A DNA stretch of 64,000 nt, from assembly GCA_903822075.1 (NCBI GenBank), contig CAIJNK010000008.1, forward strand, positions 21,961-85,960, read 5' to 3'. This document shows, piece after piece, positions 10,497-33,510 of this stretch. This DNA comes from an uncultured bacterium. GTDB lineage: Bacteria; Patescibacteriota; Minisyncoccia; Phycocordibacterales; GWA1-40-21. A program made the translations under genes and the position numbers. Below the pieces are notes generated by a model that was not told where the DNA came from, did no database searches, and worked only from the letters and a program-made list of their open reading frames with translations. Numbering within the stretch: position 1 is the stretch's first letter; the number at the start of each line of letters is the position of its first letter.

Positions 10497-10523
10497 TGCG
10501 CTCGCTTAGAGATACAATAAGAA

Positions 10524-10563
10524 AGGGGGTTCAGGAGACGACGTGTCACCCTGAACCCCCTTT
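10524..10563 (+). terminator. terminator hairpin
   Basis: 11-bp stem gggggttcagg / cctgaaccccc followed by TTT. Confidence 0.5.
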
Positions 10564-11107
10564 AAGCGTTTTCACGCAGTTCGCTCTGAGACTCCCATGA
10601 CGAGAACCTCAAAAAAAACGAATTTTACCGACTTACGATCTATCTATGTTTAGTCAAACATACCAGTTCCTCTCTTTCTGTTTAGCTCATATAATTGAGC
10701 CCCGAGCACAGCCATCTGCGCCTCATCCCCCTTAACACGTAAGGGGGAGGCCAGCTTGGCTGTTTAATCGTGCATATTGCCTCCCAATTTGGTTGTTAAC
10801 TACTCGCTGTTCAAAAAGCCTCTGCCAGAAAGTATAGCAGATTGAAATTAATTGTCAAGTAATTTTGACGTTTTTAGCCATTTTATGCACCACTGTGTCA
10901 AAATATGCCCTATTTATAAGGTTATTTTAACAAATAGGGCAAAATTATATGTTTTTGACTAAAAACAGACTAAAAATACCACAAAACATGCTAAATATAT
11001 GTCAAAATTTAGTATATTATGTTTATACTCATTGACATTATATACTATATTTTAGCTTTATTTATAGGCCTTTTTTTGGTTTTTAAAAAAGAAAATGTCA
11101 TTCTTAC

Positions 11108-11135
11108 TTGACAAAAATGTGAATATGAGTATACT
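11108..11135 (+). promoter_or_regulatory. sigma70-like promoter TTGACA-16-TATACT (island 1)
   Basis: Perfect -35 TTGACA at 11108-11113 and -10 TATACT at 11130-11135; an AGGAGG RBS lies downstream. Confidence 0.4.
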
Positions 11136-11176
11136 TACATCAGAAAGCAAAAAGTTCTCTCAAATAGGAGGTGGGT

Positions 11177-11434
11177 ATGGTTTTCAAAAAAGTCTACTTT
11201 GTGTGTATACATTGTGGGCACAAAAACTCACCACACCAAAGTCCGAGGAAGAGTTACCGGTTGGTAATTGCCAATCCACGGATTCAGTGCAGCGCGTGCA
11301 GGAGAGATTTCCAAGCAGATCTTGAAGATCTCTACCGAAAAAGTCCGCTGGCTTGCAGGATAAGGGAAGAACTGGAAGGAGAACAACATGCACTGGCTCA
11401 GACTACGACAAGAGAGAACAGCACTCCGGGTTGA
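11177..11434 (+). CDS. small zinc-ribbon protein (hypothetical)
   Basis: AGGAGG 5 nt upstream of the ATG; CIHCGH…CSACRR CxxC pairs. Confidence 0.45.
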   Translation: MVFKKVYFVCIHCGHKNSPHQSPRKSYRLVIANPRIQCSACRRDFQADLEDLYRKSPLACRIREELEGEQHALAQTTTRENSTPG

Positions 11435-11576
11435 ACGAATGGCCCTCGGAGAAGAACATAGAAAAAGCTGGTTATGGAGATTGCTCGAATACATCTTCGA
11501 GTAAGACCAGCGAAAGGGTGGAGTAAACCATCCTGAAACTGAAACAAACAACGGCGGGTAGATGTTCTACCCGTCT

Positions 11577-11641
11577 ATCCGTCGCAAGATATGTATCTTG
11601 CCTGATGAGTCCTTCACTTAGACGTTCAGGACGAAACGGAA
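11577..11641 (+). ncRNA. hammerhead ribozyme motif HHR1 (type III)
   Basis: GUC cleavage triplet; stem I hairpin gcaagata-tgt-atcttgc; CUGAUGA; stem II gtcct…aggac; GAAAC; a 5-bp stem III (tccgt/acgga) pairs with the upstream flank. Confidence 0.8.
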
Positions 11642-11666
11642 AAGATCTTTGAGAAAATGAAAATAA

Positions 11667-11717
11667 CACCTGCGCCGGATTGTTCTGAAATTATTTCAGA
11701 TTGATCCGGTGCAGGTG
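11667..11717 (+). other. long near-perfect hairpin A in HHR1-downstream leader
   Basis: Arms cacctgcgccggat / atccggtgcaggtg with one G·U pair, plus an inner tctgaaat/atttcaga stem. Confidence 0.5.
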
Positions 11718-12068
11718 TGCGCAGACACCCTAGCATGTATGTGCGGTCCCTAAACTCATCAACTTGACATCCTAGGTTGGGTTGGGTATAGGGCTACCGA
11801 CAATTCTTTCACCTCAGGAAAAGTTTTCCTGTTGCCGAAGGAGGGCATGACCAAACTTCGTTTACCGACGAAGCGCCTTCTGGAAAGAATACGGGGTGTG
11901 TAACCGACAGAAGGAGCAAATTGCCTCTTTCTAAACGGGCGGTGCCGTTCGCTTACACATTTCATGGATATAGGGGCCTTTACTCCGGTCAGGGGTCAAG
12001 GTTAGTAAAGTCCAGCTGCGCAATTTTTCAAACATTAACCATAGACAAAACTCAACGAAAGGGAATAA

Positions 12069-12365
12069 ATGAGTACCAGTTATGGTCACGCAACAGTCGC
12101 TTTCCCGGGATTTCCACCAGTCACGGGAAACACGGTAAATGACCGGGTCCTCTTTGCGAATTATCACTGGGGGTATAAAGTTGAATCCTTTCTTCCAGTG
12201 AGAACTCTAAAGTTCGCCGACGGTACGAAACGCCGCCTCTCCAAAAAAGAGCGCAGCCGCTTACTCACACTTTCTCGAAAGTGGAACAAGCACGGCCAGT
12301 GGGATTATACCCAAAATAAACGCCACCGGCCGTTTCGAACCATCGAAGAGGTGAACGACTACTAG
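12069..12365 (+). CDS. hypothetical protein (weakly supported)
   Basis: 98-aa ORF between HHR1 and HHR2; weak SD. Confidence 0.3.
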   Translation: MSTSYGHATVAFPGFPPVTGNTVNDRVLFANYHWGYKVESFLPVRTLKFADGTKRRLSKKERSRLLTLSRKWNKHGQWDYTQNKRHRPFRTIEEVNDY

Positions 12366-12527
12366 CTTCCGGGAGATCTGAGAGACAGATCGCCATGAAC
12401 CGGACGAGGTAGAGAAAACTACCTTTGGAACAGAAGCGACTACGGGCACATCACTCTACATAATGTCCCGAAAGTAAAATCCGTGAAAAAAATCACGTTA
12501 ATCATCCGAATACGCAAGGTATTCGGG

Positions 12528-12578
12528 TCTGTCTCACGATGTGTGTCGTGACTGATGAGCTCAAAAGAGCGAAACAGA
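12528..12578 (+). ncRNA. hammerhead ribozyme motif HHR2
   Basis: GUC triplet; stem I tcacga-tgtgtg-tcgtga; CUGAUGA; stem II gctc-aaaa-gagc; GAAAC; 5-bp stem III; preceded by the 8-bp hairpin ccgaatac/gtattcgg. Confidence 0.8.
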
Positions 12579-12602
12579 AAAGATCTTTGAGAATAAATAT
12601 TT

Positions 12603-12665
12603 GTCCTGCGTCTAGATTAGAAATTATTACCTGATTTTTAATCTAGACGCAGGACTCTTGCAGGG
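12603..12665 (+). other. 17-bp perfect-stem hairpin B downstream of HHR2
   Basis: gtcctgcgtctagatta … taatctagacgcaggac with a 29-nt AU-rich loop. Confidence 0.55.
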
Positions 12666-12909
12666 GTTGGACGTCTTTTGTTCACCGGTTTTCGCGAGCC
12701 GGTAACCGAATAGTATAAGGTTCGGAGCAGAGATCAGTCTCTGATAGGGGCAATGGGTCACCCTCAACCTGCACGACATAGAGATGCCGATAGTTCAAGC
12801 CTGATGTGAAGATTGTGTGGCTCCATTGTGGGCCCCAGCTTTACAAAAACGGTTTGATCATCTCTCGAGAGGGTAGCATTATGTCTGACCAACATTCTGC
12901 CCCCTCTCG

Positions 12910-12977
12910 TTTCTGTACGGGAGTATGTTCTCTCGCTGATGAGTCCTTCGCTTAGGCGTTCAGGATGAAACAGAAAA
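12910..12977 (+). ncRNA. hammerhead ribozyme motif HHR3
   Basis: GUA triplet; stem I cgggag-tatgtt-ctctcg; CUGAUGA; stem II gtcc…ggat; GAAAC; 7-bp stem III; the 12912-12986 stretch is identical to the HHR4 copy. Confidence 0.8.
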
Positions 12978-13002
12978 GATCTTTCAAACAAAGGGAGCTA
13001 AT

Positions 13003-13584
13003 ATGTTTTCAAGCAAAATCGGCAAAGGCAAGTTGTCAGTGAAAAAAGAATTCGCTGTCACCCTGCCCAAGGAGGCCAAGAAGTGGGATGACTACCGGTC
13101 GGAGATCGTGGAAGCTTTCCATACCTTGGGTGGAGTGCGGGGGATCATGGGCGTGACCGGTCTGCGTCAGACTCAGGCGTATTTACTGGCGGCGAAATTT
13201 GGATTGATTATCGAAAAAGCCGTCCGAAGGAACAGCCAAGTTTACGCCAGACGACGGATGAACAACCTCGAGCACTTAAGAAATGTTTGGGGCTGGCGGC
13301 CGGGGGATGACACAGTAACTTTGAAAAATGGGCGACACTATGCCGCTAACCGCAGTTTTATGGCTGGCAGATCGCATTTCAAAGAAGGTGAAGTCTTCGT
13401 CCAGTACTCTCTGCCTACAGGGAAAGTCCGCGAGTATTTGCTGGCTCACGGAGTTAAATGGTGGATTGCCGGAGTGGAAATGGTTCCAGTCGATGCGGTC
13501 AAAGGAGAGGGGGCCTCTCTTTCCATGAAACTGGAGACTTCGCATTTTGCCAAGGTTGATTGTCAACCCATAAAACAATCTTGA
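13003..13584 (+). CDS. hypothetical protein (island 1)
   Basis: 193 aa; SD AAAGGGAG; lies immediately downstream of HHR3; GC-rich codon usage. Confidence 0.55.
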   Translation: MFSSKIGKGKLSVKKEFAVTLPKEAKKWDDYRSEIVEAFHTLGGVRGIMGVTGLRQTQAYLLAAKFGLIIEKAVRRNSQVYARRRMNNLEHLRNVWGWRPGDDTVTLKNGRHYAANRSFMAGRSHFKEGEVFVQYSLPTGKVREYLLAHGVKWWIAGVEMVPVDAVKGEGASLSMKLETSHFAKVDCQPIKQS

Positions 13585-13611
13585 GTTCCAGATACTCAAA
13601 AATAAAATCTG

Positions 13612-13675
13612 TCTGTACGGGAGTATGTTCTCTCGCTGATGAGTCCTTCGCTTAGGCGTTCAGGATGAAACAGAA
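13612..13675 (+). ncRNA. hammerhead ribozyme motif HHR4
   Basis: Exact repeat of the HHR3 core (13612-13686 matches 12912-12986). Confidence 0.8.
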
Positions 13676-13723
13676 AAGATCTTTCGGGAAAATTAGAAAC
13701 AAAACAGCAGAAGGAGAGAAGCT

Positions 13724-14014
13724 ATGCCTAAGATTAAGTTCTCGTCGAATTTCTTGCAGGAACGCCGGATCCGTCTTGGCTTTGAACCCTGCGAGGTAGC
13801 GAGGCTGGTGGGAGTCAAGCTCGATACTTACCGACAGTGGGAATGCCGCGGGGAAATCCCCGAGAAACATCTGCCACAGTTGGCCGCCGCGCTTCAGATT
13901 CCGGAGAACGAACTGAAGGCCGAGAAGGTGGCAGTGCTGGTGGAGGCGATGTTGGGAATCCCTCGGCAGGAAACCCACGGCTTCATCAACCGAATGTTGC
14001 GCGGAAATGCGTAG
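13724..14014 (+). CDS. HTH (XRE-like) domain protein
   Basis: SD AAGGAGAG; LGFEPCEVARLVGVKLDTYRQWE helix-turn-helix; 96 aa. Confidence 0.5.
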   Translation: MPKIKFSSNFLQERRIRLGFEPCEVARLVGVKLDTYRQWECRGEIPEKHLPQLAAALQIPENELKAEKVAVLVEAMLGIPRQETHGFINRMLRGNA

Positions 14015-14026
14015 CCGGATAACACC

Positions 14027-14053
14027 CCCCGAGCAGAAATGCTCGGGGTTTTC
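14027..14053 (+). terminator. rho-independent terminator closing island 1
   Basis: Stem ccccgagc / gctcgggg followed by TTTT. Confidence 0.55.
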
Positions 14054-14090
14054 TATACGAAAAAAGTTTGGAGTGTGCTAGACTTGAAAG

Positions 14091-15659
14091 ATGAAAGCCT
14101 CGAGATTATTTTTTCAGAAAAGAAATATTTTTGTCTTGGCCTCTTTTATTGCCGGTTTTTCTTTGATGACAGTAGAACTGACTGCTTCCCGGATAATTGC
14201 CCCACTGATTGGTAGTTCTATTTTTACCTGGACCGCCGTCATTGGAGTCATACTCTTAGGCTTGGCCATCGGCAGTTACTTGGGCGGAAAAATCTCGGAT
14301 AAATATTCTGATAAACCTATTCTTGGCTTGACTTTTATTTCCGCCTCCATCACGGTCTTTATTGTGAACTACCTGGCCGCCCACACCCTCTGGCTAATAA
14401 ACAATCTTAATTCAATCGGGGTTCTGTCACTAATTTTAGTGTCCTATCTTTTTTTAATGCCGGCAATTATTCTTGGCGGAATCCAACCAATTATCTTGAA
14501 AGAATACGCCAAAGATTTTTCCCACATCGGCGCTGAATACGGCCTTTTATCCTCGTCCTGGTCTTTGGGGAGTATTTTGGGGGTATTTCTGACCGGTTTT
14601 TTTCTTATTTCTTACGTGGGTAGCGCGGAGACAATTTTTCTTATCTCCCTAACCCTGGCCATCCTGGCTTTAGTTTTCTGCATTATTGGAAAAAACAAGG
14701 ATTTAATTTATCTGTCTGCCATTATGATTTTATTTATAGTTACAGCTCTGGCTATCCAGGCCGGAATAAAAATCTCGGACAAGAATATCCTGTTTGAAAA
14801 AGAAACGGCCTATTACAAGGCCAGAGTAGTTGATTTTAATTATCCGGGTGTGGGTCAGACGAGAGGTTTTTTTTTAGACTTTGATTCTCACAGTCTGGAA
14901 ACAAAAAATACCATCCCAAATTTCTACACGGAAATATACCCAGCTTTTAGTGTCTTTAAGAATGATTTAAAAAATATTTTAGTAATCGGCGGTGGTGCCT
15001 ACACCTTGCCAAAAAATCTGGCAAGCTTTTATTCTGACTCAAGTGTAAAAGTGTGGGAGATAGATCCCGCAGTGCCAAAGCTTGCCGAAAAGTACTTTAA
15101 CCTCAATCCGCAGAAGATACACACCACGATCGGGGACGCCCGCTACCTGATAAAAAAAGACAAAGCAACCTACGACCTAATTTATGGTGATGCTTATAAC
15201 TCTTTCATCTCCGTCCCCGGCCATCTATTGACCAAAGAGTGGAATACCGAAGTCAAAAACCATCTTTCGAGTGGCGGAATATACGCGATTAATTTTATTG
15301 GCTCTCTCACGGGAGAAAAATCTATTTTATTCAAAAGCATCCTGAACACTTTTACCCAAACTTTTGGCAACTATTATATTTTTTCTTTTGGCAACAGCCC
15401 AGAAGAAATCCAAAGTATCACCATCTTGGGCGTGAATGACAATATTAAAAGAAACGGAACAGACTTGGTAGAAATACTCGGTCGGGGAATGAATCCGTTT
15501 TTAGCCCAAAAGTTAATTAGCGAACCGCAAAAATATCTCGATCCTAGAGCCATAATTTTGACCGATGATTATTACCCGACGGAGAGATTAATGTTGCCGG
15601 TAGTTACGGATTATTTTCCCAAGTTTGTCTCTTTTACAAAAAACGTCTTCGGTAATTAA
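14091..15659 (+). CDS. fused polytopic membrane domain / spermidine-synthase-like methyltransferase
   Basis: About 7 N-terminal TM helices; C-terminal VIGGGAYTL…DLIYGDAY aminopropyltransferase fold. Confidence 0.6.
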   Translation: MKASRLFFQKRNIFVLASFIAGFSLMTVELTASRIIAPLIGSSIFTWTAVIGVILLGLAIGSYLGGKISDKYSDKPILGLTFISASITVFIVNYLAAHTLWLINNLNSIGVLSLILVSYLFLMPAIILGGIQPIILKEYAKDFSHIGAEYGLLSSSWSLGSILGVFLTGFFLISYVGSAETIFLISLTLAILALVFCIIGKNKDLIYLSAIMILFIVTALAIQAGIKISDKNILFEKETAYYKARVVDFNYPGVGQTRGFFLDFDSHSLETKNTIPNFYTEIYPAFSVFKNDLKNILVIGGGAYTLPKNLASFYSDSSVKVWEIDPAVPKLAEKYFNLNPQKIHTTIGDARYLIKKDKATYDLIYGDAYNSFISVPGHLLTKEWNTEVKNHLSSGGIYAINFIGSLTGEKSILFKSILNTFTQTFGNYYIFSFGNSPEEIQSITILGVNDNIKRNGTDLVEILGRGMNPFLAQKLISEPQKYLDPRAIILTDDYYPTERLMLPVVTDYFPKFVSFTKNVFGN

Positions 15660-15678
15660 CTTCAACAACTCCAATAAT

Positions 15679-16443
15679 TTATTTGAGTTCCAACCAGACC
15701 GGACAATGATCAGAGCCGAAAATATTTTCGAGTATTTTAGCAGATTTGAGACGAGAAAGAAGGTTGGGGGAGATAAAAAAATAATCCAAACGCCAACCCA
15801 CATTCCGGTCCCGGGCAAAAGTCTTCATATCCCACCAGGAATATTTTACTTCGGTTGGGTACAGATAACGAAAAGTATCCACGTAACCGTTAGAAATAAC
15901 TTTATCCAACCAGTCCCGCTCGATTCGCAAAAAACCGGTATTCTCTTCGTTTTCTTTTGGCCGAGCCAAATCAATTTCATTGTGCGCCGTGTTCACGTCC
16001 CCGCAGAAGATCACCGAGAAACCTTTCTTTTGTAAATTCTCAATATAATTAAAAAATTCTTTGTAGAATTCCAGCTTGAAAGCCAAGCGTTCAGGCCCCC
16101 CACCACCGTTTGGAAAATAACAGGTGATAACCACCATCTTTCCGAAAAAAGCAGCCAGAAACCTTCCTTCTTGGTCTAAATCAAACTTACCCATAGCATC
16201 TTCCACCTTATCCGGCTTAATTTTGCTGTAAATAGCCACGCCGCTATAACCTTTACGCATTTTAGAATGATCAAAATAGGAAAAATAACCGGCTGGATGA
16301 CGCAGTTCTTCGGGCAAATCATCCGGGTGTGCTTTTGTTTCCTGCAAGCAGATAATGTCAGGGTCAAGCTCAAACAGCTGATTCCATTTATCTTTTTTAT
16401 ACACGGCCCGCAAACCATTTACGTTCCAGGATAAAAGTTTCAT
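15679..16443 (-). CDS. xth: exodeoxyribonuclease III
   Basis: MKLLSWNVNGLRA…QETK…GDVNTAHNEIDL…SDHCPV, the EEP nuclease signature. Confidence 0.85.
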   Translation of the reverse strand: MKLLSWNVNGLRAVYKKDKWNQLFELDPDIICLQETKAHPDDLPEELRHPAGYFSYFDHSKMRKGYSGVAIYSKIKPDKVEDAMGKFDLDQEGRFLAAFFGKMVVITCYFPNGGGGPERLAFKLEFYKEFFNYIENLQKKGFSVIFCGDVNTAHNEIDLARPKENEENTGFLRIERDWLDKVISNGYVDTFRYLYPTEVKYSWWDMKTFARDRNVGWRLDYFFISPNLLSRLKSAKILENIFGSDHCPVWLELK

Positions 16444-16465
16444 ACGTTAATAATAGCACAAATCC

Positions 16466-17467
16466 TTAGCCTTTATTATGAAACTTTTTGTGGATGTCGC
16501 GGAGGTGCTTGTCCGTCACATGGGTATAAATCTGGGTGGTCATGATGCTGGAGTGGCCAAGCATGCTTTGCACGGAGCGCAAATCTGCCCCATTACTAAG
16601 CAAATCAGTGGCAAAAACGTGCCGGATAACGTGGGGAGTGACTTTTTTGGTAATGCCAGCAATCGTCGCATAGCGTTTAACAATTCTTTCGATGGAGACA
16701 GTGGTCAGACCTTTGTTTATTTCCGCTCCGCCCCGAAGTTTGGCGGGCTTTCTTTGATATTCTCGCACTCCGCTCACGGGAACAAACAAAGCGTCAGACA
16801 TATCCTTACGTAGAGCCAAATATTGTCGGATGGCGTCTTTGGCTTCATCGGATAGAAAAACCACGCGGACTTTACCGCCTTTGCCCCGAATGGAAAATTC
16901 ATCCAGTTTTATATCCAAATCTCGGCCCAGGGAACACAGCTCGGCTACACGCAAGCCGGTAGAGAAAAGCAACTCTAAGATAGCCCGATCTCGGAAACGG
17001 CGTTCCGGATTTTCTTCCTGATTAGGCGCATCAAGCAAGCGCTGCAGCTCTTTTAGGGAAATCAGGTCAATGGAACGTTCACCCACTTTGGCTAATTCAA
17101 TATTATCGGCAGGGAGGGAAGTGACGCCTCGGCGCGCCAAGAACTTAAGAAAGACACGTAGGGCAATCAGGTAATAGTTCTGGGTTTTTCGGCTTAGGCT
17201 CCCACCGGCTTGCCCCTGCTCACCAAAGGAGTGATAAGCCTTGGCTCCAGGCCGCCGGTTCAGCCAGAGACGAAAGTCACGTACTTTTTCATTGGTAATA
17301 TCTTTGGGGTCAGTGAGCTTGGTCTGACTCAGGAATAAGCTCAGATAACGGTCGTACCGATCGACGGTTTTGAGCGCTCGCCCTTTTTCAATTTCAATAT
17401 ATTCCAGGAATCGAGTTTTGAGTTCATTCAAATTGTTACTCATGGTACTAATTATATCATGTTGCAC
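16466..17467 (-). CDS. tyrosine site-specific recombinase XerC/XerD-like
   Basis: C-terminal HVIRHVFATDLL…LGHSSIMTTQIYTHV catalytic R-H-R-Y motifs. Confidence 0.8.
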   Translation of the reverse strand: MQHDIISTMSNNLNELKTRFLEYIEIEKGRALKTVDRYDRYLSLFLSQTKLTDPKDITNEKVRDFRLWLNRRPGAKAYHSFGEQGQAGGSLSRKTQNYYLIALRVFLKFLARRGVTSLPADNIELAKVGERSIDLISLKELQRLLDAPNQEENPERRFRDRAILELLFSTGLRVAELCSLGRDLDIKLDEFSIRGKGGKVRVVFLSDEAKDAIRQYLALRKDMSDALFVPVSGVREYQRKPAKLRGGAEINKGLTTVSIERIVKRYATIAGITKKVTPHVIRHVFATDLLSNGADLRSVQSMLGHSSIMTTQIYTHVTDKHLRDIHKKFHNKG

Positions 17468-17535
17468 AATAATTTGTGTTTTTAAATTTTTAATGTGCTA
17501 TTATATAGAATATTATTAGAATAAATTAAAAATAT

Positions 17536-20028: not shown

Positions 20029-20032
20029 AGAA

Positions 20033-20299
20033 ATGAAAAATATAAAGCTTGATACAAGCAACCGCACCAAACTGGCTGATGATATGATTAAAAACTTGGG
20101 TAAAGTCTCCAAGGTAGACAAAGGAGAAGTAGTGGCAAATATGGCTATTTCCTATATCAAAATAATGAATGAGCTGAATAAGAAGCAGATTGAAGACCTA
20201 AAAAAGACCCTGGCTTTGTTTGGGGATATAAAGAAAGAGGAAAGAGAGGAAGATGAAAAAGTAAGGCTTCAGAGGATTAGAAAGGAGCTTAACAAATAG
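20033..20299 (+). CDS. hypothetical K/E-rich protein
   Basis: 88-aa ORF, 4 nt after the upstream stop. Confidence 0.35.
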   Translation: MKNIKLDTSNRTKLADDMIKNLGKVSKVDKGEVVANMAISYIKIMNELNKKQIEDLKKTLALFGDIKKEEREEDEKVRLQRIRKELNK

Positions 20300-20338
20300 C
20301 CCCTTGCATTTTACAGGAAGATGTGCTAGACTCTGCCA

Positions 20339-20599: not shown

Positions 20600-20608
20600 A
20601 ACAAAAAA

Positions 20609-20636: not shown

Positions 20637-20687
20637 TGGTATAATTGCCACAGGTCGAATTTTAATAAAAATTAATTATATTTTTAT

Positions 20688-24203: not shown

Positions 24204-24218
24204 AATAATTCAAATTAA

Positions 24219-24247
24219 AAAACCTCCGGAACTTCCTGAGGTTTTTT
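24219..24247 (+). terminator. rho-independent terminator after pnp
   Basis: aacctc…gaggtt stem plus TTTTTT. Confidence 0.6.
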
Positions 24248-24251
24248 AAAT

Positions 24252-26530: not shown

Positions 26531-26537
26531 ATACTGC

Positions 26538-27269
26538 TTAGCCTAATTTCTCATAGAAAGTTTGGAATATTTGCTTTTGGAACTCGGCGATCCTCTTACT
26601 CTCAATAATCATGACCGTTTCCGTATTGTAATCGATAAAAGCGACTTTATTACCATAGATTATCTCAGTAACATTATGTTCAAAAGGACCAAAATCGTTC
26701 GGCATAATTTTTGCAAAGCGATCCAGGCTTGGTCTTTTGTGCACTGCCGTCTGGGCGTTAGTAATCACTTCTCGCTGTAATTTCTTTTCGTCACGCATTT
26801 GACGATAAATCCTGGGCACATATTTATCTTTTTTTTCATTACCGTCCTTGTTTGAACTGTAACGGTAAAAGACATCCCCTTTTTTAAGACTGCGCACCAC
26901 ATCATCAAAAATTCTTTTAGTTCCATCTCTTCCTTCAAGAAATCTGATCTTCGGTTTTTTCTCACTGCTATTATAGGCGTCCTCCATGTCCGGCAGGATT
27001 TCAAAAAAATCAATTCGTAAATCGTCAAAAAGAGTTTCTAATCGATTGGGTGGTTCAGCGCCATAAACTACACTTTTTATTTTTTGCGTTTTAGTGACTA
27101 GTTTTTTTTCCATGAGGGAGGGTAGGGCCTTGTAAACCAGGGGACGATGGATTGAAGTTTTTTCGGAAATTTGGGAGATATTGGAGGTTCCCATCTCCAG
27201 CAAAGCCAGGTAAATGGCACTTTCATGCTTAGTCAGGCCTATTTTCTCCAAAATCTTGTTTTTATCCAT
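26538..27269 (-). CDS. TrmB-like transcriptional regulator (paralog 3)
   Basis: HTH LEKIGLTKHESAIYLALL; divergently oriented from island 2. Confidence 0.6.
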   Translation of the reverse strand: MDKNKILEKIGLTKHESAIYLALLEMGTSNISQISEKTSIHRPLVYKALPSLMEKKLVTKTQKIKSVVYGAEPPNRLETLFDDLRIDFFEILPDMEDAYNSSEKKPKIRFLEGRDGTKRIFDDVVRSLKKGDVFYRYSSNKDGNEKKDKYVPRIYRQMRDEKKLQREVITNAQTAVHKRPSLDRFAKIMPNDFGPFEHNVTEIIYGNKVAFIDYNTETVMIIESKRIAEFQKQIFQTFYEKLG

Positions 27270-27569
27270 ATATTTAGTTATTTTTGCTGTAATTTTAGCT
27301 TACATAGAGTATAGATAAATATCTTCAAAAAATCAAGTATTTAAGGTATTTAATATACCTTTTCTTGATTATCTATTCTTAATGTAATAATTAGTTACAT
27401 TTTTAATCAGCAAGGATTGTTGATACATAAGGGTTATTTGGGATTTAGCCAATAAACATTACATGACATTGAGCAAATTCAAGCAAGAGTTCTCCCTTTA
27501 ATATATGCTGTTCCGAGACCAAGAACGGCACTTCGAGAAGATAAACCAACCAAACAGGAGGGAACGAGG

Positions 27570-27869
27570 ATGAACAGCCCCATCATGAGTCGATACCAGG
27601 CTTGGCGTGAGGACAGAAACGCTCGAATTGCTTTCCTGATGCTAAGGAAACAGTGGGCCAGAAACTTACTAAGGGAGGCGGCACTGACCGAACCCGGACA
27701 GGAGACTGAAGCCGAGTTCCGGGGAGCAGTCTACCGGGTCTGGATTGGCCCGCGAGGCGGAGTCAGAATCCACCAAACAAGAGTACTGCCAAAACCCCTG
27801 CCGCCGGCAACGCTGCCAAAAACTGAAAATCTGCCCATGCTCGCCGCCTTTCAAAGGGTTGGGCTATAA
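27570..27869 (+). CDS. hypothetical protein (first gene of island 2)
   Basis: SD ACAGGAGGGAACGAGG; GC-rich; 99 aa. Confidence 0.45.
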   Translation: MNSPIMSRYQAWREDRNARIAFLMLRKQWARNLLREAALTEPGQETEAEFRGAVYRVWIGPRGGVRIHQTRVLPKPLPPATLPKTENLPMLAAFQRVGL

Positions 27870-27898
27870 ACAACGGCGGGGATTAGGAACCCCCGCCT

Positions 27899-27960
27899 TC
27901 CGTCGCCAAGTGAAACTTGGCCTGATGAGTCCTTCACTTAGACGTTCAGGACGAAACGGA
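27899..27960 (+). ncRNA. hammerhead ribozyme motif HHR5
   Basis: GUC; stem I gccaag-tgaaa-cttggc; CUGAUGA; stem II as in HHR1; GAAAC; 5-bp stem III; preceded by the hairpin ggcgggg/ccccgcc. Confidence 0.8.
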
Positions 27961-27999
27961 TAAAGGTCGAAAGATTATCAAAATAACTAAAAATAAATA

Positions 28000-28371
28000 A
28001 TGCTCAAAAAAGTAAAAACATTGAGAACGCCGGCGTCGCATGCGGAATACGAACGCTACCAAAAAACGCCAAAGTTCCCGGCTTGTTACATCTGCACGGC
28101 CAAGACGATAAAAACTTATGAGAAATGGAAGATGATTGAAAACGAGTTTCCTTACAACGAAATAGCCACGAAAAACGACATGATTGTCCCGATCAGGCAC
28201 ACCACTGAAAACGACTTGACGGAGGAAGAACTAAGGGAGTTTACAAAGATAAAAGAAGACATCAACGACAAATACGACATGATTCTGGAAAATACCCACA
28301 AACAAAAATCCATCCCCGGGCACTTCCACTTGCACCTCTTACAAATAAAAGAGCGGGAAATTGAAATTTAA
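28000..28371 (+). CDS. HIT-family (histidine triad)-like protein
   Basis: HFHLHLL histidine-triad motif; N-terminal CYIC. Confidence 0.5.
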   Translation: MLKKVKTLRTPASHAEYERYQKTPKFPACYICTAKTIKTYEKWKMIENEFPYNEIATKNDMIVPIRHTTENDLTEEELREFTKIKEDINDKYDMILENTHKQKSIPGHFHLHLLQIKEREIEI

Positions 28372-28400
28372 CGGCCGAGAGGCTGTTTTTTAGACCCAAA

Positions 28401-28450
28401 CTGTCTCGGAATGTGTATTCCGGCTGATGATTCCGAAAGGATGAAACAGG
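28401..28450 (+). ncRNA. hammerhead-like motif HHR6 (variant, U·U at 10.1/11.1)
   Basis: GUC; stem I cggaat-gtgt-attccg; CUGAUGA; stem II ttcc-gaaa-ggat; GAAAC; 4-bp stem III. The conserved G10.1-C11.1 pair is replaced by U/U, so it may be inactive. Confidence 0.5.
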
Positions 28451-28478
28451 TAAGTTCATTAACAACAGGAGATATAAA

Positions 28479-28700
28479 ATGTCGTGCCCAGTATGCGGAA
28501 GAGTCTTATGTGATCACTCGCCGGATGAACGTGGACAATCCTACGAGGGGATGATGGCAGATATGGATAATGATACACGCCGAATACAAGGCGGGGGTGG
28601 CTTATTGGGGCCAGCAACACCATTTCATCCAAACAGCTTCAATCCTCGTAGAGATTTACCTCCAGGGGAACGACCAGCTGACTGGGGGTTACGAGATTGA
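28479..28700 (+). CDS. small Cys-containing hypothetical protein
   Basis: SD AGGAG 9 nt upstream; MSCPVCG…C. Confidence 0.35.
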   Translation: MSCPVCGRVLCDHSPDERGQSYEGMMADMDNDTRRIQGGGGLLGPATPFHPNSFNPRRDLPPGERPADWGLRD

Positions 28701-28732
28701 CAATACACCCCGCATCTTAATTGATGCGGGTA

Positions 28733-28782
28733 CTGTCCGAGAGTGTGTACTCTCGCTGATGAGTCCAAAAGGACGAAACGGA
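28733..28782 (+). ncRNA. hammerhead ribozyme motif HHR7
   Basis: GUC; stem I cgagagt-gtgt-actctcg; CUGAUGA; stem II gtcc-aaaa-ggac; GAAAC; preceded by the hairpin cccgcatc/gatgcggg. Confidence 0.8.
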
Positions 28783-28798
28783 AAAGTTCTTTGAAAAA

Positions 28799-28859
28799 GT
28801 TGCCAAGAGATTTGAGAACTTGATTTGTGATTAATTGATTTTTCAAATCTCTTGGCAAC
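28799..28859 (+). other. 17-bp perfect-stem hairpin C in 5' leader of REC-domain gene
   Basis: gttgccaagagatttga … tcaaatctcttggcaac with a 27-nt AU-rich loop. Confidence 0.55.
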
Positions 28860-28892
28860 AATAAACAAAAAGAAAGGAAACGAGGTAGAGGT

Positions 28893-30332
28893 ATGAATAA
28901 GACAAGCGGCATTGAGATCGTGAAGGGTACGCTCCATTTTGAACATGACGGAAACGGTTTCGTCTGTCGAGAGCTCAGGGAACTGCCGGTACTGTTTGGG
29001 GAGACTCATGGCACCGATAAAGTGGATGAGGCAATCAAGCAATACTTGGCGGGTCTGCGAGGAATTTTCGAACCGAGGTACGGCTCCAGGACGGAGCGGG
29101 ACGCGGTTCCGGAAGTCGAGCGGGTGCGTTTGGGTGGTTTGGCCTTCGATGAAATCGTGGGCTCGATCGACACCAAAGATCTCTCGCTCTTCCAGAAGCT
29201 CATGTTCTGGCTGTCGGACTGGTGGTATTACAATGTGGCTCTTCGTCAGAAGTGCAACTTTGATTACAACAAATTCGACTTCTACGGAATAAGCTCGAAA
29301 ATCATCGGCGAATTCGTGCTGGCTTTGCTGCCGGAACAGATTCAGTCGGTGCTCGGGAAGATGCAGGTAGCCGGAACCGCAGTGGGATTTGGTCACTTCG
29401 CCATTTTGTTCATTGATGGTGTTCATGGCCGGTCGGGAACGGTGCGCCGGATTGTGACGGATACGCAGCTCATTGAGTTGCATGACGTCAGCGGGTACAC
29501 CTACCTCGACATCACCAAGGAAGGGAAGCCGGTCGCAAGGTCGGTGACCAGCCGCGGTGGTGAGCGAGCGTTCTTCGACGGGGTTCGACTCATGTCGCAT
29601 GACATGTTTCAGACCTGCGCGCCCAAGACGGTCGTGATCAATGGTGGATACAAGGTGAACTCCACCCAATGCACGATTATCAATGGGATTCTGTTCCCGG
29701 TGATCGAGAGCAATGATGCCGTGGCGAAAACGACCGGCGCCTTTATGGGGATGGTGGATTTCACCAATACCCAGGCCCTCGAGTCTTATGCCTTGTCGGA
29801 AGCGACGGGGACGCGACTCAAGGTTGATGGGCCAAGGGTGTTTCTGGATAAAAAAGAGCTCAAACCGATCGGGGTTTTCCAACCCAGCTCGGTGCATCTA
29901 CTGGATTCAGGGTTTGCCCTCTACGACTGGTCGGACTTTCACGAGGTGATGAACTGTCGGTTCGATTCCGTTCTGGTCATTGATGACAAGAAGGATTGGA
30001 TCGATCAATTTCGGCAAGCCTTTGGCTCCGAGATCACTCACCTCAAAGAGGTCCAGACCAGTAGCCGTGAAGAAGCGCTTGGGGCGATTGTCAACGGAAA
30101 GCCAGAAGTGGTGATCCTCGACATGCACCTGTCCGACTCCGAGGGTTTTGAAGGCCTTTGGATTGCGAACCAGTTGTTCGCCAACGCATTCGGTGGTCGA
30201 ATCGTGATTGCGAGCAGTTACCCGGATGAACAATTGAAAGCCATGACTACTCTAATCAAGGGTAAGGTCTGGGCTCCAGGCAAGAACATCGACCGTATTC
30301 GTAAACTGCTCGGCAGTACGAATTGGCGATAA
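28893..30332 (+). CDS. protein with unknown N-terminal domain and C-terminal CheY-like receiver domain
   Basis: C-terminus VLVIDDKKD…VVILDMHLSDSEG…GKVWAPGK fits a response-regulator receiver domain; SD GAGGTAGAGG. Confidence 0.6.
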   Translation: MNKTSGIEIVKGTLHFEHDGNGFVCRELRELPVLFGETHGTDKVDEAIKQYLAGLRGIFEPRYGSRTERDAVPEVERVRLGGLAFDEIVGSIDTKDLSLFQKLMFWLSDWWYYNVALRQKCNFDYNKFDFYGISSKIIGEFVLALLPEQIQSVLGKMQVAGTAVGFGHFAILFIDGVHGRSGTVRRIVTDTQLIELHDVSGYTYLDITKEGKPVARSVTSRGGERAFFDGVRLMSHDMFQTCAPKTVVINGGYKVNSTQCTIINGILFPVIESNDAVAKTTGAFMGMVDFTNTQALESYALSEATGTRLKVDGPRVFLDKKELKPIGVFQPSSVHLLDSGFALYDWSDFHEVMNCRFDSVLVIDDKKDWIDQFRQAFGSEITHLKEVQTSSREEALGAIVNGKPEVVILDMHLSDSEGFEGLWIANQLFANAFGGRIVIASSYPDEQLKAMTTLIKGKVWAPGKNIDRIRKLLGSTNWR

Positions 30333-30403
30333 CGGCGACACTTGCGCCTATAAGTTGTAAGACTTATTAAAACTTACGACCTGCATCTTGATCGATGCAG
30401 GTT

Positions 30404-30452
30404 CTGTCCGAGAGTGTGTACTCTCGCTGATGAGTCCAAAAGGACGAAACAG
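30404..30452 (+). ncRNA. hammerhead ribozyme motif HHR8
   Basis: Same core as HHR7 with a different stem III (tctg/caga versus HHR7 tctg/cgga); preceded by the hairpin cctgcatc/gatgcagg. Confidence 0.8.
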
Positions 30453-30502
30453 TAGTTCTTTGAAACAAACAAGTCCCGACAGGGACGGAAAGGTGGAAAC
30501 AG

Positions 30503-30949
30503 ATGAAGAAGGCAGCATTTCTCTCGTACAATTCGATAGCGGGTTTTAGTGCCGGATGGATCGACGGCACGACAGACTGCAAGGCTCTGATTATTCCTTG
30601 TTCGCATGGGTCATCAGCCGCCCCGAAAGTTCGCAGCGAAGCTCAGTGTCATGATGTCACGAATGAGATCACTCGACTGTGGGCCCAGCTCCGAGAACAC
30701 GTAAAGGAGTTGGATTACATCGTCGTGTATGTTGGAAGTGATGGGTCGGAAAATGCCATCACACTAGCTTCTGAGCTACCTTCCGAAAAGGTAACCTTCG
30801 TGATGTGTGACTGCCGTCTTGGTACAAAGGATGAGCTTCTCAGAAGAGCTGGCCACACAAATGCTCGGCAAATTATGTGTGAATGTCGTGGGTTAGAGAC
30901 CATGGGCCGGCTCTGCAAAAGATTCCTGGATACTGGCATGATCGGCTAA
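30503..30949 (+). CDS. hypothetical Cys-rich protein
   Basis: 148 aa; SD AAAGGTGG. Confidence 0.45.
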   Translation: MKKAAFLSYNSIAGFSAGWIDGTTDCKALIIPCSHGSSAAPKVRSEAQCHDVTNEITRLWAQLREHVKELDYIVVYVGSDGSENAITLASELPSEKVTFVMCDCRLGTKDELLRRAGHTNARQIMCECRGLETMGRLCKRFLDTGMIG

Positions 30950-30990
30950 CGGAGGCATGGTTAGAGGTTCCATTACAAAAACCTCACACT

Positions 30991-31036
30991 AGCAAAGTGT
31001 GTACTTTCGCTGATAAGTCCAGAAGTATGAAACAGA
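30991..31036 (+). ncRNA. degenerate hammerhead relic HHR9
   Basis: CUGAUAAG (G8 changed to A), stem II disrupted (gtcc-agaa-gtat), no U at 16.1; still aligned with HHR7/8 and followed by the same leader. Confidence 0.4.
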
Positions 31037-31068
31037 AAAGTTCATAAACAACAAGATATGGAGATTAA

Positions 31069-31638
31069 ATGTCTAGTATATTGATGAAGTATGAATCCAG
31101 TTTCCGTGACGGTGAGAGCCTTGAGAATTTCGAGCTCTGTCTTCTACCTGGTGAAGTATGGCTTACCACTGAGCCGGAAATGATGACTTGGCTTGAAGCA
31201 ATAGAGATTGCTGGAGCTAAATCAAACTTACGCCTGCCACATTACGCTGATCTAATAAGGGCGGTAGAAAGTTTGTCGAAAGATAGCCGGCTTGGCGAGC
31301 AGTTCTCTCCACTTGAAGATGGAGAGTTTTGGACAATAGGTTCGGAGGGATATGAAGCAAATCAGCCATTCGCCTGTTGTGTTCAAGCCACACACAGTAG
31401 CTATGACTCACACAGCCTAAAGACTTGCCTAAAATGGGTAAGGTTCATCAAACGAGGTAAGGCAGAAACATCATTTGAAATCCAAAAGAAAAAGGAGTTG
31501 AGAGAAAGATGGATGCATGAGGTTAATCTTCACCGGAAAGTATCCGATATTCTTGATTTAGATCAAGTTGAAATTGGTACCATACATGGACAATTTCAAC
31601 TTGAATCAAAATCGCAAATTCGCAAAAGGCTGCAGTAA
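31069..31638 (+). CDS. hypothetical protein
   Basis: 189 aa; SD GGAG upstream of the ATG. Confidence 0.45.
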   Translation: MSSILMKYESSFRDGESLENFELCLLPGEVWLTTEPEMMTWLEAIEIAGAKSNLRLPHYADLIRAVESLSKDSRLGEQFSPLEDGEFWTIGSEGYEANQPFACCVQATHSSYDSHSLKTCLKWVRFIKRGKAETSFEIQKKKELRERWMHEVNLHRKVSDILDLDQVEIGTIHGQFQLESKSQIRKRLQ

Positions 31639-31711
31639 TGTCAATGCGGCGCAGAGAAAGATAAAAAGTGGAGACAACCACCTATCAAAAACCCTGGGGA
31701 ATTTACCCAGG

Positions 31712-31764
31712 TTCTGTCCGGGAGTGTGTACTCTCGCTGATGAGTCCAAAAGGACGAAACGGAA
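31712..31764 (+). ncRNA. hammerhead ribozyme motif HHR10
   Basis: GUC; stem I cgggagt-gtgt-actctcg with a G·U pair; CUGAUGA; gtcc-aaaa-ggac; GAAAC; 6-bp stem III; preceded by the hairpin cctggg/cccagg. Confidence 0.8.
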
Positions 31765-31795
31765 AAAGGTCGAAAAATTATTAAAGGAGAAAGTG

Positions 31796-32950
31796 ATGAC
31801 AACAAAAAAAGAGAAAACAATTCTGTGCGACGCCAAGGCTTTCTGCTTTGGGCCCATATCGAAACTCTTAACGATTAGCGAGAGACTCTTTGAAAAGTAT
31901 CGAATTGTGTTTCTGGTCTCCCGGACAAGCAAGATGCTTTCCGCGCATGCTTGCGCCGATGAGATAGTGGAATGTGATACGGAAAACATCACCGATCTAT
32001 TGGCACACGAGGCCTTGTTTAAGTCGGCCGACCTGTTTGTAAACATTATGAATCCGCTCTCGGCACGTTTTGCGGCCGAAAGAGGATTACCGATGGTCCA
32101 GATAGACAGCTTGTTCTGGATGTGGGAACAGATAGCGGAAGAAATTCTCAGCTCAGAGATTTATTTCATTCAGGACTTTGAAGGAGTCGCTGAGCAAATG
32201 AAAAAATTCTCTGGCCGGATAAAGAATCCGGTTCTGGTCGGTCCAATCATAAAAGAGGTTCCTAATGGCGTACCGAAGAAGAACAAACTGCTCATTAATT
32301 TGGGCGGGATGGAATCGGCTTCGATAAAGGTGGGGGTTAATACGGAGTACCCTTACGTAATAATGCGACTCATCAATGATTTGCTGGCAAAAGGCCACGA
32401 CTTTGCTGAGATTGTCTGTGCGGGTAACCGAGACATTCTGGAAGAGATGAAAAGGAGGACACCGAACGGGGCTATTCATTACCAGTTCTTTGAACATAAT
32501 GATTTTCTCCGGCAGATAGCGGAATCAAGGTTGATCATATCGTCTCCGGGACTGACAACCGCCTTCGAGGTTTTTAATTCGGGGACACCGGTGTTCTTCA
32601 TACCGCCCCAGAATTACAGCCAATATTGGAATCTTGATAGTTTTATCAAGAACGGTGTGGCGGAAGAAGCAATAAACTGGAATCACCTCTACTCGGAGGT
32701 AAGCATTCTGAAAAACGAGGAACAAAAGAAAGGGATTGAAAAAGTACTTCAATGTACCCGCCAATTCGAAAAGGATCCAAAAGCTTGGTCCAAAGTGGAG
32801 GGAGGTGTAAAACACTTTCTCACTCTCCCAACAGATGAATTGGAGGGGGTGGGGAAGCGTCAGAAGAAGTACTTCGAAACGCTCGGTGGTAACGGTACAG
32901 AGGTCATAGTCAAAGGTATTATAGACTTACTCGAGAAGAGGAAAGTATAA
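31796..32950 (+). CDS. GT-B fold glycosyltransferase-like protein (MurG/GT28-like C-terminal domain)
   Basis: The start is placed at the ATG after SD AAAGGAGA, because the longer ORF from 31568 runs through HHR10 and the upstream gene. C-terminal LIISSPGLTTAFEVFNSGTPVFFIPP resembles the nucleotide-sugar-binding half of MurG-like enzymes. Confidence 0.5.
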   Translation: MTTKKEKTILCDAKAFCFGPISKLLTISERLFEKYRIVFLVSRTSKMLSAHACADEIVECDTENITDLLAHEALFKSADLFVNIMNPLSARFAAERGLPMVQIDSLFWMWEQIAEEILSSEIYFIQDFEGVAEQMKKFSGRIKNPVLVGPIIKEVPNGVPKKNKLLINLGGMESASIKVGVNTEYPYVIMRLINDLLAKGHDFAEIVCAGNRDILEEMKRRTPNGAIHYQFFEHNDFLRQIAESRLIISSPGLTTAFEVFNSGTPVFFIPPQNYSQYWNLDSFIKNGVAEEAINWNHLYSEVSILKNEEQKKGIEKVLQCTRQFEKDPKAWSKVEGGVKHFLTLPTDELEGVGKRQKKYFETLGGNGTEVIVKGIIDLLEKRKV

Positions 32951-33042
32951 TATACTTGACTTTTAGGCCTAGACGTGCTACCATTGTAAACAGAACAGAG
33001 GGTATCACTTGCCCTGATTTAGAGCCGTAAAATCGGCCACAA

Positions 33043-33444
33043 GTGAAGAAGAAGGAGACAAACATGAAGAAGTACCTTGGTAAGTTGGTGCAGATGTTGT
33101 CGGTAATTGCACTGTTGGCGCTGGCCACATTTTCGAGCGGCTGTGCGACGGTCCTGCCTGGCGGGGATGGTGATAAGGAAACTCGAGTTATGTCCGGTGA
33201 CATACCGCGGGCGGGGTCGACGATCTTTATCTTCTACGCCGGCAGCAACATGAACTGCGGGTATAGCGGGTTTGAGTCTGTCATCATCTGGGCCTATGAG
33301 GTGGGTGACGGACTCGATAAGATGAAGGTACTCAGAACCAAGGGGTTCGCCTTCAACTTCAAATCCGAATGTCCGCGCGGCCGGTTCTTCGTAGGCGAAG
33401 ATGGCCAGACAAGGATCAGCTTCGAGCCCAAACCAGGCGAATAA
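33043..33444 (+). CDS. lipoprotein (hypothetical)
   Basis: Signal peptide with lipobox LATFSSGC. Confidence 0.5.
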   Translation: MKKKETNMKKYLGKLVQMLSVIALLALATFSSGCATVLPGGDGDKETRVMSGDIPRAGSTIFIFYAGSNMNCGYSGFESVIIWAYEVGDGLDKMKVLRTKGFAFNFKSECPRGRFFVGEDGQTRISFEPKPGE

Positions 33445-33484
33445 CTCCGCCACAGACCTGATATGTCTGAACCAACTGTCAACA

Positions 33485-33510
33485 AAGCCCAACTTCGGTT
33501 GGGCTTTTTC
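33485..33510 (+). terminator. rho-independent terminator closing island 2
   Basis: aagcccaac-ttcg-gttgggctt followed by TTTT. Confidence 0.6.

Follow-up and report, generated by a model that had tools for sequence, protein, structure and literature searches.

This work concerns a 64,000-nt stretch of DNA from an uncultured bacterium (contig CAIJNK010000008.1; its whole length is called the window below) and two islands within it, island 1 at positions 11095-14060 and island 2 at 27500-33510. Each island is a co-directional array of small cassettes, with two non-coding RNA units in addition, in which type III hammerhead ribozymes (HHs) stand between the cassettes, and each has a gene for a TrmB-like regulator as its neighbor. 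The gene content points to a chromosome of the candidate phyla radiation (CPR, or Patescibacteria) near the replication origin. The genes are small, many open reading frames (ORFs) belong to no family, and the nearest named relatives are metagenome-assembled genomes (MAGs) of Candidatus Paceibacterota/Parcubacteria. Part of island 2 is 100% identical to a 1.9-kb contig of the GTDB genome 'uncultured bacterium AM-lipid-01-D7_bin-1316'.

Ribozymes and cassettes of the two islands

At its gathering threshold, Rfam reports four tRNAs and nothing else in the window. The Hammerhead_3 model (RF00008) does give eight matches, but all of them are under the gathering score (the best has 45.3 against 48.5 bits; E 4e-7 or weaker), and default annotation of CPR genomes therefore misses them. 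They become visible when an E-value threshold or a custom covariance model is used instead. Our covariance model, R1, was built from 16 sequences, eight HHs of the window and eight from a relative. With R1, ten type III HHs are found, all on the + strand, all intergenic and all inside the two islands, while outside the islands the model returns only noise at about 21 bits. Other ribozyme classes (twister, pistol, hatchet) are not found in the islands at E <=5.

The fold is well supported by covariation. In the 16-sequence alignment, 97.1% of the cells are paired and ten of the 15 pairs have compensatory changes. Slid alignments are 36-48% paired, and none of 500 shuffles reaches the observed covariation score. 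Three helices surround the core; stems I and II are closed by loops, and stem III is open. CUGAUGA, GAAA and a GUC or GUA triplet are retained in nine of the ten copies, the exception being HH2e with CUGAUAA and no GUH triplet, and six copies are canonical when stem II is counted with the core. Seven HHs end 25-46 nt ahead of the next start codon, and most are directly preceded by a GC hairpin. Over 117 non-redundant HHs, the 42 nt on the 5' side fold with -11.8 kcal/mol, compared to -8.0 kcal/mol for controls (p = 1e-9).

The features of the two loci are as follows.

Regulators and candidate operators
9744-10496, + strand: TrmB-like regulator, paralogue 2 (TrmB2), Pfam PF01978 (E 7e-16), upstream of island 1 on the same strand
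26538-27269, - strand: TrmB-like regulator, paralogue 3 (TrmB3), PF01978 (E 2.6e-14), divergent from island 2
27288-27304 and 27383-27399: the palindrome TGTAA-N7-TTACA, present twice in the TrmB3-island 2 spacer; candidate operators for TrmB3

Island 1
10522-10563: hairpin after TrmB2, terminator-like on both strands (-32.8 kcal/mol, z -6.7 on +; -35.4 kcal/mol, z -7.2 on -), separating TrmB2 from the island 1 promoter region
11108-11135, + strand: promoter-like site (TTGACA, 16-nt spacer, TATACT; 11 of 12 consensus positions, a consensus match only), 40 nt upstream of the ribosome-binding site of the first ORF
11177-11434, + strand: first cassette ORF, 85 amino acids (aa), zinc-ribbon-like with two CxxC pairs (weak Elf1-type zinc-ribbon match); a 39%-identical homologue adjoins an HH in L057
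11574-11644, + strand: HH1a, canonical core, long stem II; R1 69.2 bits, Rfam 39.6 bits; GC hairpin 11553-11573 directly 5' of the cleavage site
11645-12068, + strand: structured leader RNA, about 420 nt, after HH1a and ahead of the 98-aa ORF, kept in L009 and the distant L051
12069-12365, + strand: cassette ORF, 98 aa, no known family; homologues 52% (L009) and 45% (L051) identical, both within HH arrays
12524-12582, + strand: HH1b, canonical core; R1 77.1 bits
12583-12907, + strand: ORF-less RNA unit of about 325 nt, HH-bounded on both sides, kept in L009 (2661-3014)
12908-12978, + strand: HH1c, GUA triplet, G-U at the core-adjacent stem II pair; R1 64.2 bits
13003-13584, + strand: cassette ORF, 193 aa, no family, between the identical HH1c and HH1d
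13608-13678, + strand: HH1d, GUA triplet, core-adjacent G-U as in HH1c; R1 61.8 bits
13724-14014, + strand: cassette ORF, 96 aa, weak similarity to phage repressor-type helix-turn-helix (HTH) regulators (PHROG)
14027-14053, + strand: intrinsic terminator ending island 1, 9-bp stem with seven G-C pairs, U tract

Island 2
27570-27869, + strand: first cassette ORF, 99 aa; homologues 52% (L009, other array position) and 37% (L072) identical
27895-27964, + strand: HH2a; R1 56.9 bits; preceded by hairpin 27875-27897
28000-28371, + strand: cassette ORF, 123 aa; homologues 72-79% identical in arrays of L009, L061 and L063
28396-28454, + strand: HH2b, U-U at the core-adjacent stem II pair; R1 70.9 bits; may be impaired
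28479-28700, + strand: cassette ORF, 73 aa, N-terminal CPVC motif plus Cys11, third ORF of the island; no homologue in any locus retrieved
28728-28786, + strand: HH2c, canonical; R1 78.9 bits; hairpin 28709-28730 on the 5' side, long hairpin 28797-28861 on the 3' side
28893-30332, + strand: cassette ORF, 479 aa (REC-479), a 350-aa N-terminal domain and a C-terminal receiver (REC) domain
30399-30457, + strand: HH2d, canonical; R1 74.9 bits; hairpin 30379-30402 on the 5' side
30503-30949, + strand: cassette ORF, 148 aa, cysteine-rich, no family
30984-31040, + strand: HH2e, decayed; R1 30.6 bits; G8 replaced by A in the core, stem II broken; probably inactive
31069-31638, + strand: cassette ORF, 189 aa, no family; 51%-identical homologue in the L089 array
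31709-31767, + strand: HH2f, canonical; R1 78.7 bits; hairpin 31693-31711 on the 5' side
31796-32950, + strand: cassette ORF, 384 aa, weak glycosyltransferase match (GT28 C-terminal domain, PF04101, E 3e-5); 86%-identical orthologue in L009 at another array position
33064-33444, + strand: last ORF of the island, predicted lipoprotein, 126 aa, GC at third codon positions (GC3) 0.69; no HH ahead, absent from L009
33484-33512, + strand: intrinsic terminator ending island 2, 10-bp stem, UUCG loop, U tract

Some of the HH copies are very similar to each other. HH1c and HH1d are 100% identical over 74 nt, with one gene between them, and HH2a is 98% identical to HH1a over the 44 nt of core and stem II. 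An earlier reading of this DNA (the sequence-only reading) had placed strong terminators at the ends of both islands, and this is confirmed by the folding energies: hairpin 14027-14048 has -20 kcal/mol (z -4.6) and is followed by UUUUCU, and hairpin 33484-33507 has -15.5 kcal/mol (z -4.0) and is followed by UUUUUC. It had also pointed to a small CxxC protein near each 5' end. Both proteins exist (11177-11434 and 28479-28700), but homology between them is rejected by comparison and the one of island 2 is the third ORF, which makes this a weak parallel.

As to the cassette proteins, PHROGs and PADLOC searches on ten of them give no meaningful phage or defence assignment. The 96-aa ORF at 13724-14014 has weak matches to a transcriptional repressor family (PHROG 4, E 4.6e-5) and to a family of CII-like regulators (PHROG 4836, E 1.8e-4) and none in Pfam. 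It shows the highest GC3 of the window (0.71) and has a 46%-identical homologue in L076. A 'HIT-like' assignment of the ORF at 28000-28371, made from a C-terminal HxHxHxx motif spotted by eye, is not supported by Pfam or by a sequence search of the PDB.

Linkage to TrmB-like regulators

Four TrmB-like paralogues are present within the 64 kb (1260-2021, 9744-10496, 26538-27269 and 38348-39094), two of which adjoin HH arrays. All four pass the curated cut-off of PF01978 (50-58 bits against 25.6), and the earlier observation that each island has a TrmB-like regulator next to it holds. The other paralogues of the window are 20-24% identical to TrmB3, with 24% between TrmB2 and TrmB3. The profile of the CPR family can be aligned along its entire length, about 240 residues, with Pyrococcus TrmBL2 (PDB 5bqt, residues 11-259), while with TrmB itself (PDB 3qph) only residues 9-153 are aligned and the sugar-binding domain is not. 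These alignments indicate a TrmBL2-like architecture.

The association with HHs was quantified from both directions. In an HH-anchored survey, the window-derived HH pattern yielded 37 loci in species-representative genomes, mostly CPR (Paceibacterota, Nomura-, Taylor-, Kaiser-, Morani-, Doudna-, Falkow- and Saccharibacteria); the remaining labels are about ten 'uncultured bacterium' only and three Gammaproteobacteria. A TrmB-like gene occurs in 21 of the 37 loci, and its placement is upstream and divergent (15), upstream on the same strand (4), mixed (1; L024, with arrays on both strands) or downstream only (2). The region downstream of each HH cluster served as internal control. In 16 of 24 clusters there is a TrmB-like gene in the 2.5 kb ahead of the first HH, compared to 3 of 24 with one in the 2.5 kb beyond the last HH (Fisher p = 2.8e-4).

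The TrmB3-anchored survey covers 77 metagenome loci, obtained with a 4-sequence TrmB3 alignment as query; a broader alignment of 17 TrmB-like proteins had proved too diverse to serve as query and was replaced. Among TrmB3 orthologues (67-88% identity, with at least 1 kb of upstream sequence), a divergent HH array is found in 18 of 24 cases, the first HH being 0.5-1.2 kb from the start of the regulator and within 1 kb in 17 of them. Remoter TrmB-like genes have no divergent HH array in any of 29 cases, over 218 kb of flank (p = 2e-9 versus the orthologues). In L026 and L051, relatives of TrmB2 (50-56% identity) likewise precede HH arrays of the same orientation. Chance does not account for the TrmB link, and the recurrent pairing, usually divergent and seen in many CPR genomes with internal controls, supports the earlier suggestion that the islands may be under TrmB-like control.

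The spacer between TrmB3 and island 2 is 300 bp long. The window has three occurrences of TGTAA-N7-TTACA where 0.35 are expected, and L009 keeps both spacer copies in its corresponding spacer. The palindrome is missing upstream of island 1. The third copy is at 35248-35264, between the Udk-CYTH gene and a BtpA-like gene, outside the islands.

Synteny and turnover of the arrays

The sequence-only reading suggested that the islands are horizontally acquired cassettes and proposed a synteny comparison. In the relative L009, whose housekeeping genes share 69-91% amino-acid identity with those of the window, a TrmB3 orthologue (83%) and a divergent HH array are present, and the array extends to the same Udk-CYTH gene as island 2. 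In L060, HHs are followed by ExoIII, Xer, S15, NYN and PNPase, which matches the neighborhood of island 1. An HH array is thus found at the same site in L009 for island 2 and in L060 for island 1. With both loci in synteny between relatives, neither island is a recent insertion, and a reading of the islands as inserted DNA fails the refutation test that the sequence-only reading had set for itself. At least seven more distant CPR genomes also have the CCA-adding enzyme next to a TrmB-like gene and HHs.

It is worth considering what could still speak for recently acquired mobile DNA, that is, a prophage remnant or an integrative element whose GC content is a foreign signature not yet ameliorated and whose TrmB neighbors are coincidental. 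The GC content of the window peaks in the islands, most island genes are orphans, the HTH-like ORF at 13724-14014 weakly matches phage repressor families, the first reports of HH clusters in bacteria came from prophage contexts (PMC3088659), and the same HH subtype is present in seven viral contigs. The viral HHs, however, have no adjoining TrmB-like gene, and the TrmB linkage of the chromosomal arrays is statistically non-random. Neither island contains or directly adjoins an integrase gene. An Xer-type gene (16466-17467) is the nearest tyrosine recombinase; it lies 2.4 kb past island 1, at the same place in relatives, and probably encodes a housekeeping enzyme. Family searches with the island proteins give no phage structural, replication or integrase families, there are no flanking direct repeats of 25 nt or longer other than the HHs themselves, and no tRNA gene is adjacent to the islands (distances of 3.3 kb or more). 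Finally, the cassettes shared with L009 (52-86% identity) are as diverged as the housekeeping neighbors and yet retain about +10% GC in both lineages. A bias that is kept through about 25-30% protein divergence can hardly come from recent import without amelioration. At the level of the locus this explanation is largely refuted, and as an account of the islands we consider it very improbable.

What does stand of the claim of horizontal acquisition concerns single cassettes, as content and order differ among relatives that keep the regulator. L009 holds four of the eight island 2 genes in a changed order, and an island-1-like array sits directly beside its TrmB3. Metagenome arrays beside TrmB3 orthologues (67-88% identity) have almost no genes in common with the window, and of the HH-adjacent ORFs pooled over many genomes, 64 of 87 are singletons. 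The 98-aa and REC cassettes, which are in separate arrays in the window, are in one array in L051. The content of the islands turns over almost completely, and the changing blocks are HH-bounded. Of the ends of homology blocks between arrays, 30% are no farther than 30 nt from an HH, where 10% would be expected. This fits HH-bounded cassettes but is not proof of them, since ORF boundaries coincide.

These data bring to mind an integron-like acquisition platform, in which the HHs or the hairpins would be recombination sites or RNA-level junctions for the capture and shuffling of cassettes, and processing would be secondary. As in chromosomal integrons, co-oriented and largely promoter-less cassettes with a repeated structured element between them (here 60-75 nt) are associated with expression from one end, as predicted here, a divergent conserved gene and a fixed locus with fast turnover of content. 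The nearly complete difference in content and order between relatives, the enrichment of block ends at HHs, the identical 74-nt copies on both sides of one gene and the shift of cassettes between arrays all agree with this idea. The resemblance is nevertheless architectural only. No IntI and no other integron-type integrase or recombinase is consistently adjacent, the Xer gene near island 1 having the probable housekeeping role mentioned above, and the gene beside each array is TrmB-like. Unlike attC, the repeat is a catalytic RNA, and its covariation and intact catalytic core reveal selection on RNA fold and catalysis, not on a DNA site. Moreover, homologous recombination between HH repeats alone would give the same junctions. 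We judge a platform of this kind to be unlikely.

Base composition

The claim that the islands are GC-richer than their flanks is confirmed. Both have a GC content of 0.480, compared to 0.396, 0.421 and 0.423 for the left, middle and right remainder and 0.426 for the whole window. No segment of the same size elsewhere reaches 0.48 (maxima 0.458 and 0.450, means 0.422 and 0.425, standard deviations (sd) 0.024 and 0.019 for the two sizes), which means that the composition is not uniform and that the islands are its maxima. The 12 island ORFs have a mean GC of 0.50 and GC3 of 0.55, while the 52 other genes have 0.42 (sd 0.034) and 0.44 (sd 0.054); the Mann-Whitney p values are 1.8e-5 for GC and 1.1e-3 for GC3. 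GC-rich codons had been seen in particular at 29400-29600, which falls within the 479-aa gene (GC3 0.665), and this is also correct, with the qualification that the bias is uneven among cassettes. It is near the host value at 28000-28371 (0.417), 31069-31638 (0.423) and 31796-32950 (0.453).

The excess is not limited to the window. In other CPR genomes, 27 of 34 loci have a higher GC content in the HH-adjacent ORFs than in the remaining ORFs of the locus, on average by +5.0% GC and +8.3% GC3 (Wilcoxon p = 2e-5). In L009 the mean GC3 is 0.53 in island genes and 0.34 in host genes, and orthologous cassettes (REC and the 99-aa ORF) are GC-rich in both the window and L009. Continual import from a GC-richer pool, selection and biased gene conversion are all possible sources, and the present data do not separate the three.

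One option is that the GC excess is a by-product of function, arising either from selection in ribozyme-processed transcripts, for stable RNA structure or for a stable mRNA, or from gene conversion with a GC bias at a recombination hot spot, and that TrmB is a mere syntenic neighbor. That orthologous cassettes keep the excess in two lineages, that it is present in CPR genomes of very different base composition, and that island 1 is rich in structured RNA are all consistent with this. However, the bias is mostly in third codon positions of ordinary ORFs and is uneven, with a GC of 0.30 in the CYTH cassette of L009 and values close to that of the host in three genes of island 2. The orientation-specific TrmB linkage is not accounted for either. 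This option appears quite unlikely to us.

Proposed mechanism

On the basis of these results, the account that we consider probable, although well short of certain, is that a TrmB-like repressor controls one promoter per array and that the HHs cut the transcript into single-gene mRNAs with defined, structured ends. The TrmB-like protein would bind operators in the spacer on the array side, the two TGTAA-N7-TTACA palindromes being the candidates for TrmB3. Through this binding, the protein would determine how the array as a whole is transcribed from a single upstream promoter, and probably also the transcription of its own gene. The long transcript would then cleave itself at each HH. The predicted products are single-gene mRNAs that begin with a 5'-OH and the compact HH fold 25-46 nt ahead of the start codon, while the upstream product would end in the GC hairpin, a few nucleotides and a 2',3'-cyclic phosphate. 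The HH folds with their covariation, their positions, the 5' hairpins, the regulator linkage, the synteny, the turnover and the recurrent GC excess are observed here. We infer from them self-cleavage in the cell, one transcript per array, TrmB binding and regulation, and effects of the ends on mRNA stability and translation.

Since the ends would be the same whatever the neighbors, the expression of a cassette would be insulated from its context, as with engineered ribozyme insulators. Cassettes could then be gained, lost and reshuffled without losing expression, and the repeated HHs would mark the junctions. In the engineered insulator RiboJ, an HH just upstream of the ribosome-binding site reportedly removes the variable 5' leader and makes expression independent of context. 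Such insulators are synthetic single parts from a plant satellite RNA, whereas the elements described here are natural, are repeated through the array and place a 3' hairpin on the upstream product in addition.

It is important to point out that several observations weigh against this account. First, the core-adjacent stem II pair deviates in three of the ten HHs (G-U in HH1c and HH1d, U-U in HH2b), and HH2e is probably dead. Second, 6 of the 24 TrmB3 orthologues have no HH upstream. Third, TrmB2 is set apart from island 1 by the terminator-like hairpin and 600 bp. Fourth, no consensus promoter is found upstream of island 2, and promoter-like sites are present within it, e.g. at 32922-32984 ahead of the lipoprotein gene. 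Fifth, the search for an operator shared by the two upstream regions, which the sequence-only reading had called for, comes out negative, with a longest common word, a 10-mer, that is at chance expectation; this absence fits regulators that share only 24% identity. In addition, the REC-479 homologue of L012 has neither an HH nor a TrmB gene nearby, the coincidence of ORF boundaries limits what can be drawn from the homology-block ends, and the model leaves the GC excess unexplained.

A more far-reaching proposal is that the TrmB-linked HH arrays are a dedicated CPR-wide cassette system. Exchangeable cassettes of hypervariable content would be driven by a conserved regulator and promoter, and HH and hairpin together would be both the insulator that allows expression of any cassette at any position and the junction for capture or shuffling, making it a ribozyme-based functional analogue of an integron that also releases structured non-coding RNAs (11645-12068 and 12583-12907). 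We regard this as speculative and rather doubtful.

Relation to known systems

Perreault et al. 2011 (PMC3088659) observed in-vitro cleavage of ~2-kb polycistronic constructs with clustered bacterial HHs and proposed that such HHs process mRNAs; their role is still described as largely elusive (PMC6765202). The prophage-like clusters of the 2011 work resemble the present arrays in that several close HHs surround single genes or short blocks of varying identity, and in the proposed processing of long transcripts into gene-length mRNAs. The arrays examined here differ in being type III, in occupying chromosomal positions of CPR bacteria that are syntenic and free of integrase and phage genes, and in being tied to TrmB. 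They further differ in their GC-enriched cassettes, in the hairpin directly 5' of the cleavage site, in the HH-bounded conserved non-coding RNAs and in Rfam scores below the gathering threshold.

The TrmB and TrmBL2 proteins of Thermococcales (3qph, 5bqt) share with the CPR proteins the N-terminal winged helix of PF01978 and a gene position beside an operon that is possibly controlled. The identity is about 20-30%, the host here is bacterial (CPR), and the putative target is an array of ribozyme-punctuated cassettes, not a sugar transporter operon. We found no literature that links hammerheads with CPR bacteria or with TrmB.

What is already known is thus the clustering of HHs around variable genes. 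New are the CPR-wide spread, the fixed chromosomal loci, the pairing with a regulator, the maintained GC excess, the combination of hairpin and ribozyme, and the HH-bounded non-coding RNAs. One regulator family consistently paired with the arrays, in a major and poorly understood radiation, provides a handle on the purpose of clustered HHs, and the recurrent order of hairpin, cleavage site, HH and ribosome-binding site makes exact mRNA ends predictable. If the model is correct, it would explain why the genes adjoining bacterial HHs are 'not constant', and it would mean that organisms with tiny genomes maintain a hypervariable, probably adaptive gene pool.

Other features of the arrays and the window

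The two RNA units of island 1 have conserved folds. The leader RNA at 11645-12068 consists of a long hairpin (11666-11718) and a multi-branched domain closed by GCGCAG/CUGCGC. From three sequences, RNAalifold gives 105 pairs, 28 of them with compensatory changes. The leader RNA is without a match in Rfam and, judged from this alignment, may be a new RNA motif. The unit at 12583-12907 consists of a long AT-rich hairpin (~12600-12656) and a structured part, with 80 predicted pairs, 19 of which have compensatory changes between two sequences. It has no + strand ORF of 50 aa or more, and cleavage at the HHs on both sides would free it as a stand-alone RNA.

The 479-aa protein is the most widespread cassette, with 75 homologue clusters, and wherever the source organism is named it is of a CPR (Patescibacteria) lineage. 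The AlphaFold (AF2) model has a pLDDT (predicted local distance difference test) of 91 and confirms the receiver domain, while the 350-residue N-terminal domain has no match among PDB structures; Cys25, His168 and Asp190 are invariant in it. In the distant relative L016, a 137-nt element (9820-9956) directly upstream of the REC-479 homologue contains the 5' and 3' halves of a tmRNA tRNA-like domain. Its Rfam tmRNA score is 51.3, against a gathering threshold of 47, and it is not called by ARAGORN. The same locus has a degenerate hammerhead-like site at 9409-9468 with the core CUGGCGA. In L012, the signature of a diversity-generating retroelement (bAvd and reverse transcriptase, 9582-11405) is found about 6 kb from a 71%-identical REC-479 homologue.

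In other assemblies of the same strain (L001-L008), contigs start or stop at HH copies, e.g. at 11575, 13685 and 28449. The possibility that these short contigs are alternative cassette contexts was rejected, as all of them are colinear with the window and merely break at the HH repeats. Because the repeats fragment short-read assemblies in this way, MAGs probably under-represent such arrays.

Between TrmB2 and island 1, the minus strand carries a strong promoter-like site at 10858-10831 (TTGACA, 16-nt spacer, TATACT, extended TG), and about 270 nt downstream of it a strong hairpin with a U tract (10563-10522). There is no ORF longer than 26 aa on the minus strand of 10520-10860, and by these signals the segment may be a small RNA gene.

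At the other end of the window are DnaA (61042-62385) and DnaN (62608-63708). A long + strand cluster at 47890-59153 encodes large unknown proteins and membrane or secreted proteins, including a VirB4-like ATPase (54710-56527), and is probably a type IV secretion or pilus-like apparatus adjoining the origin region.

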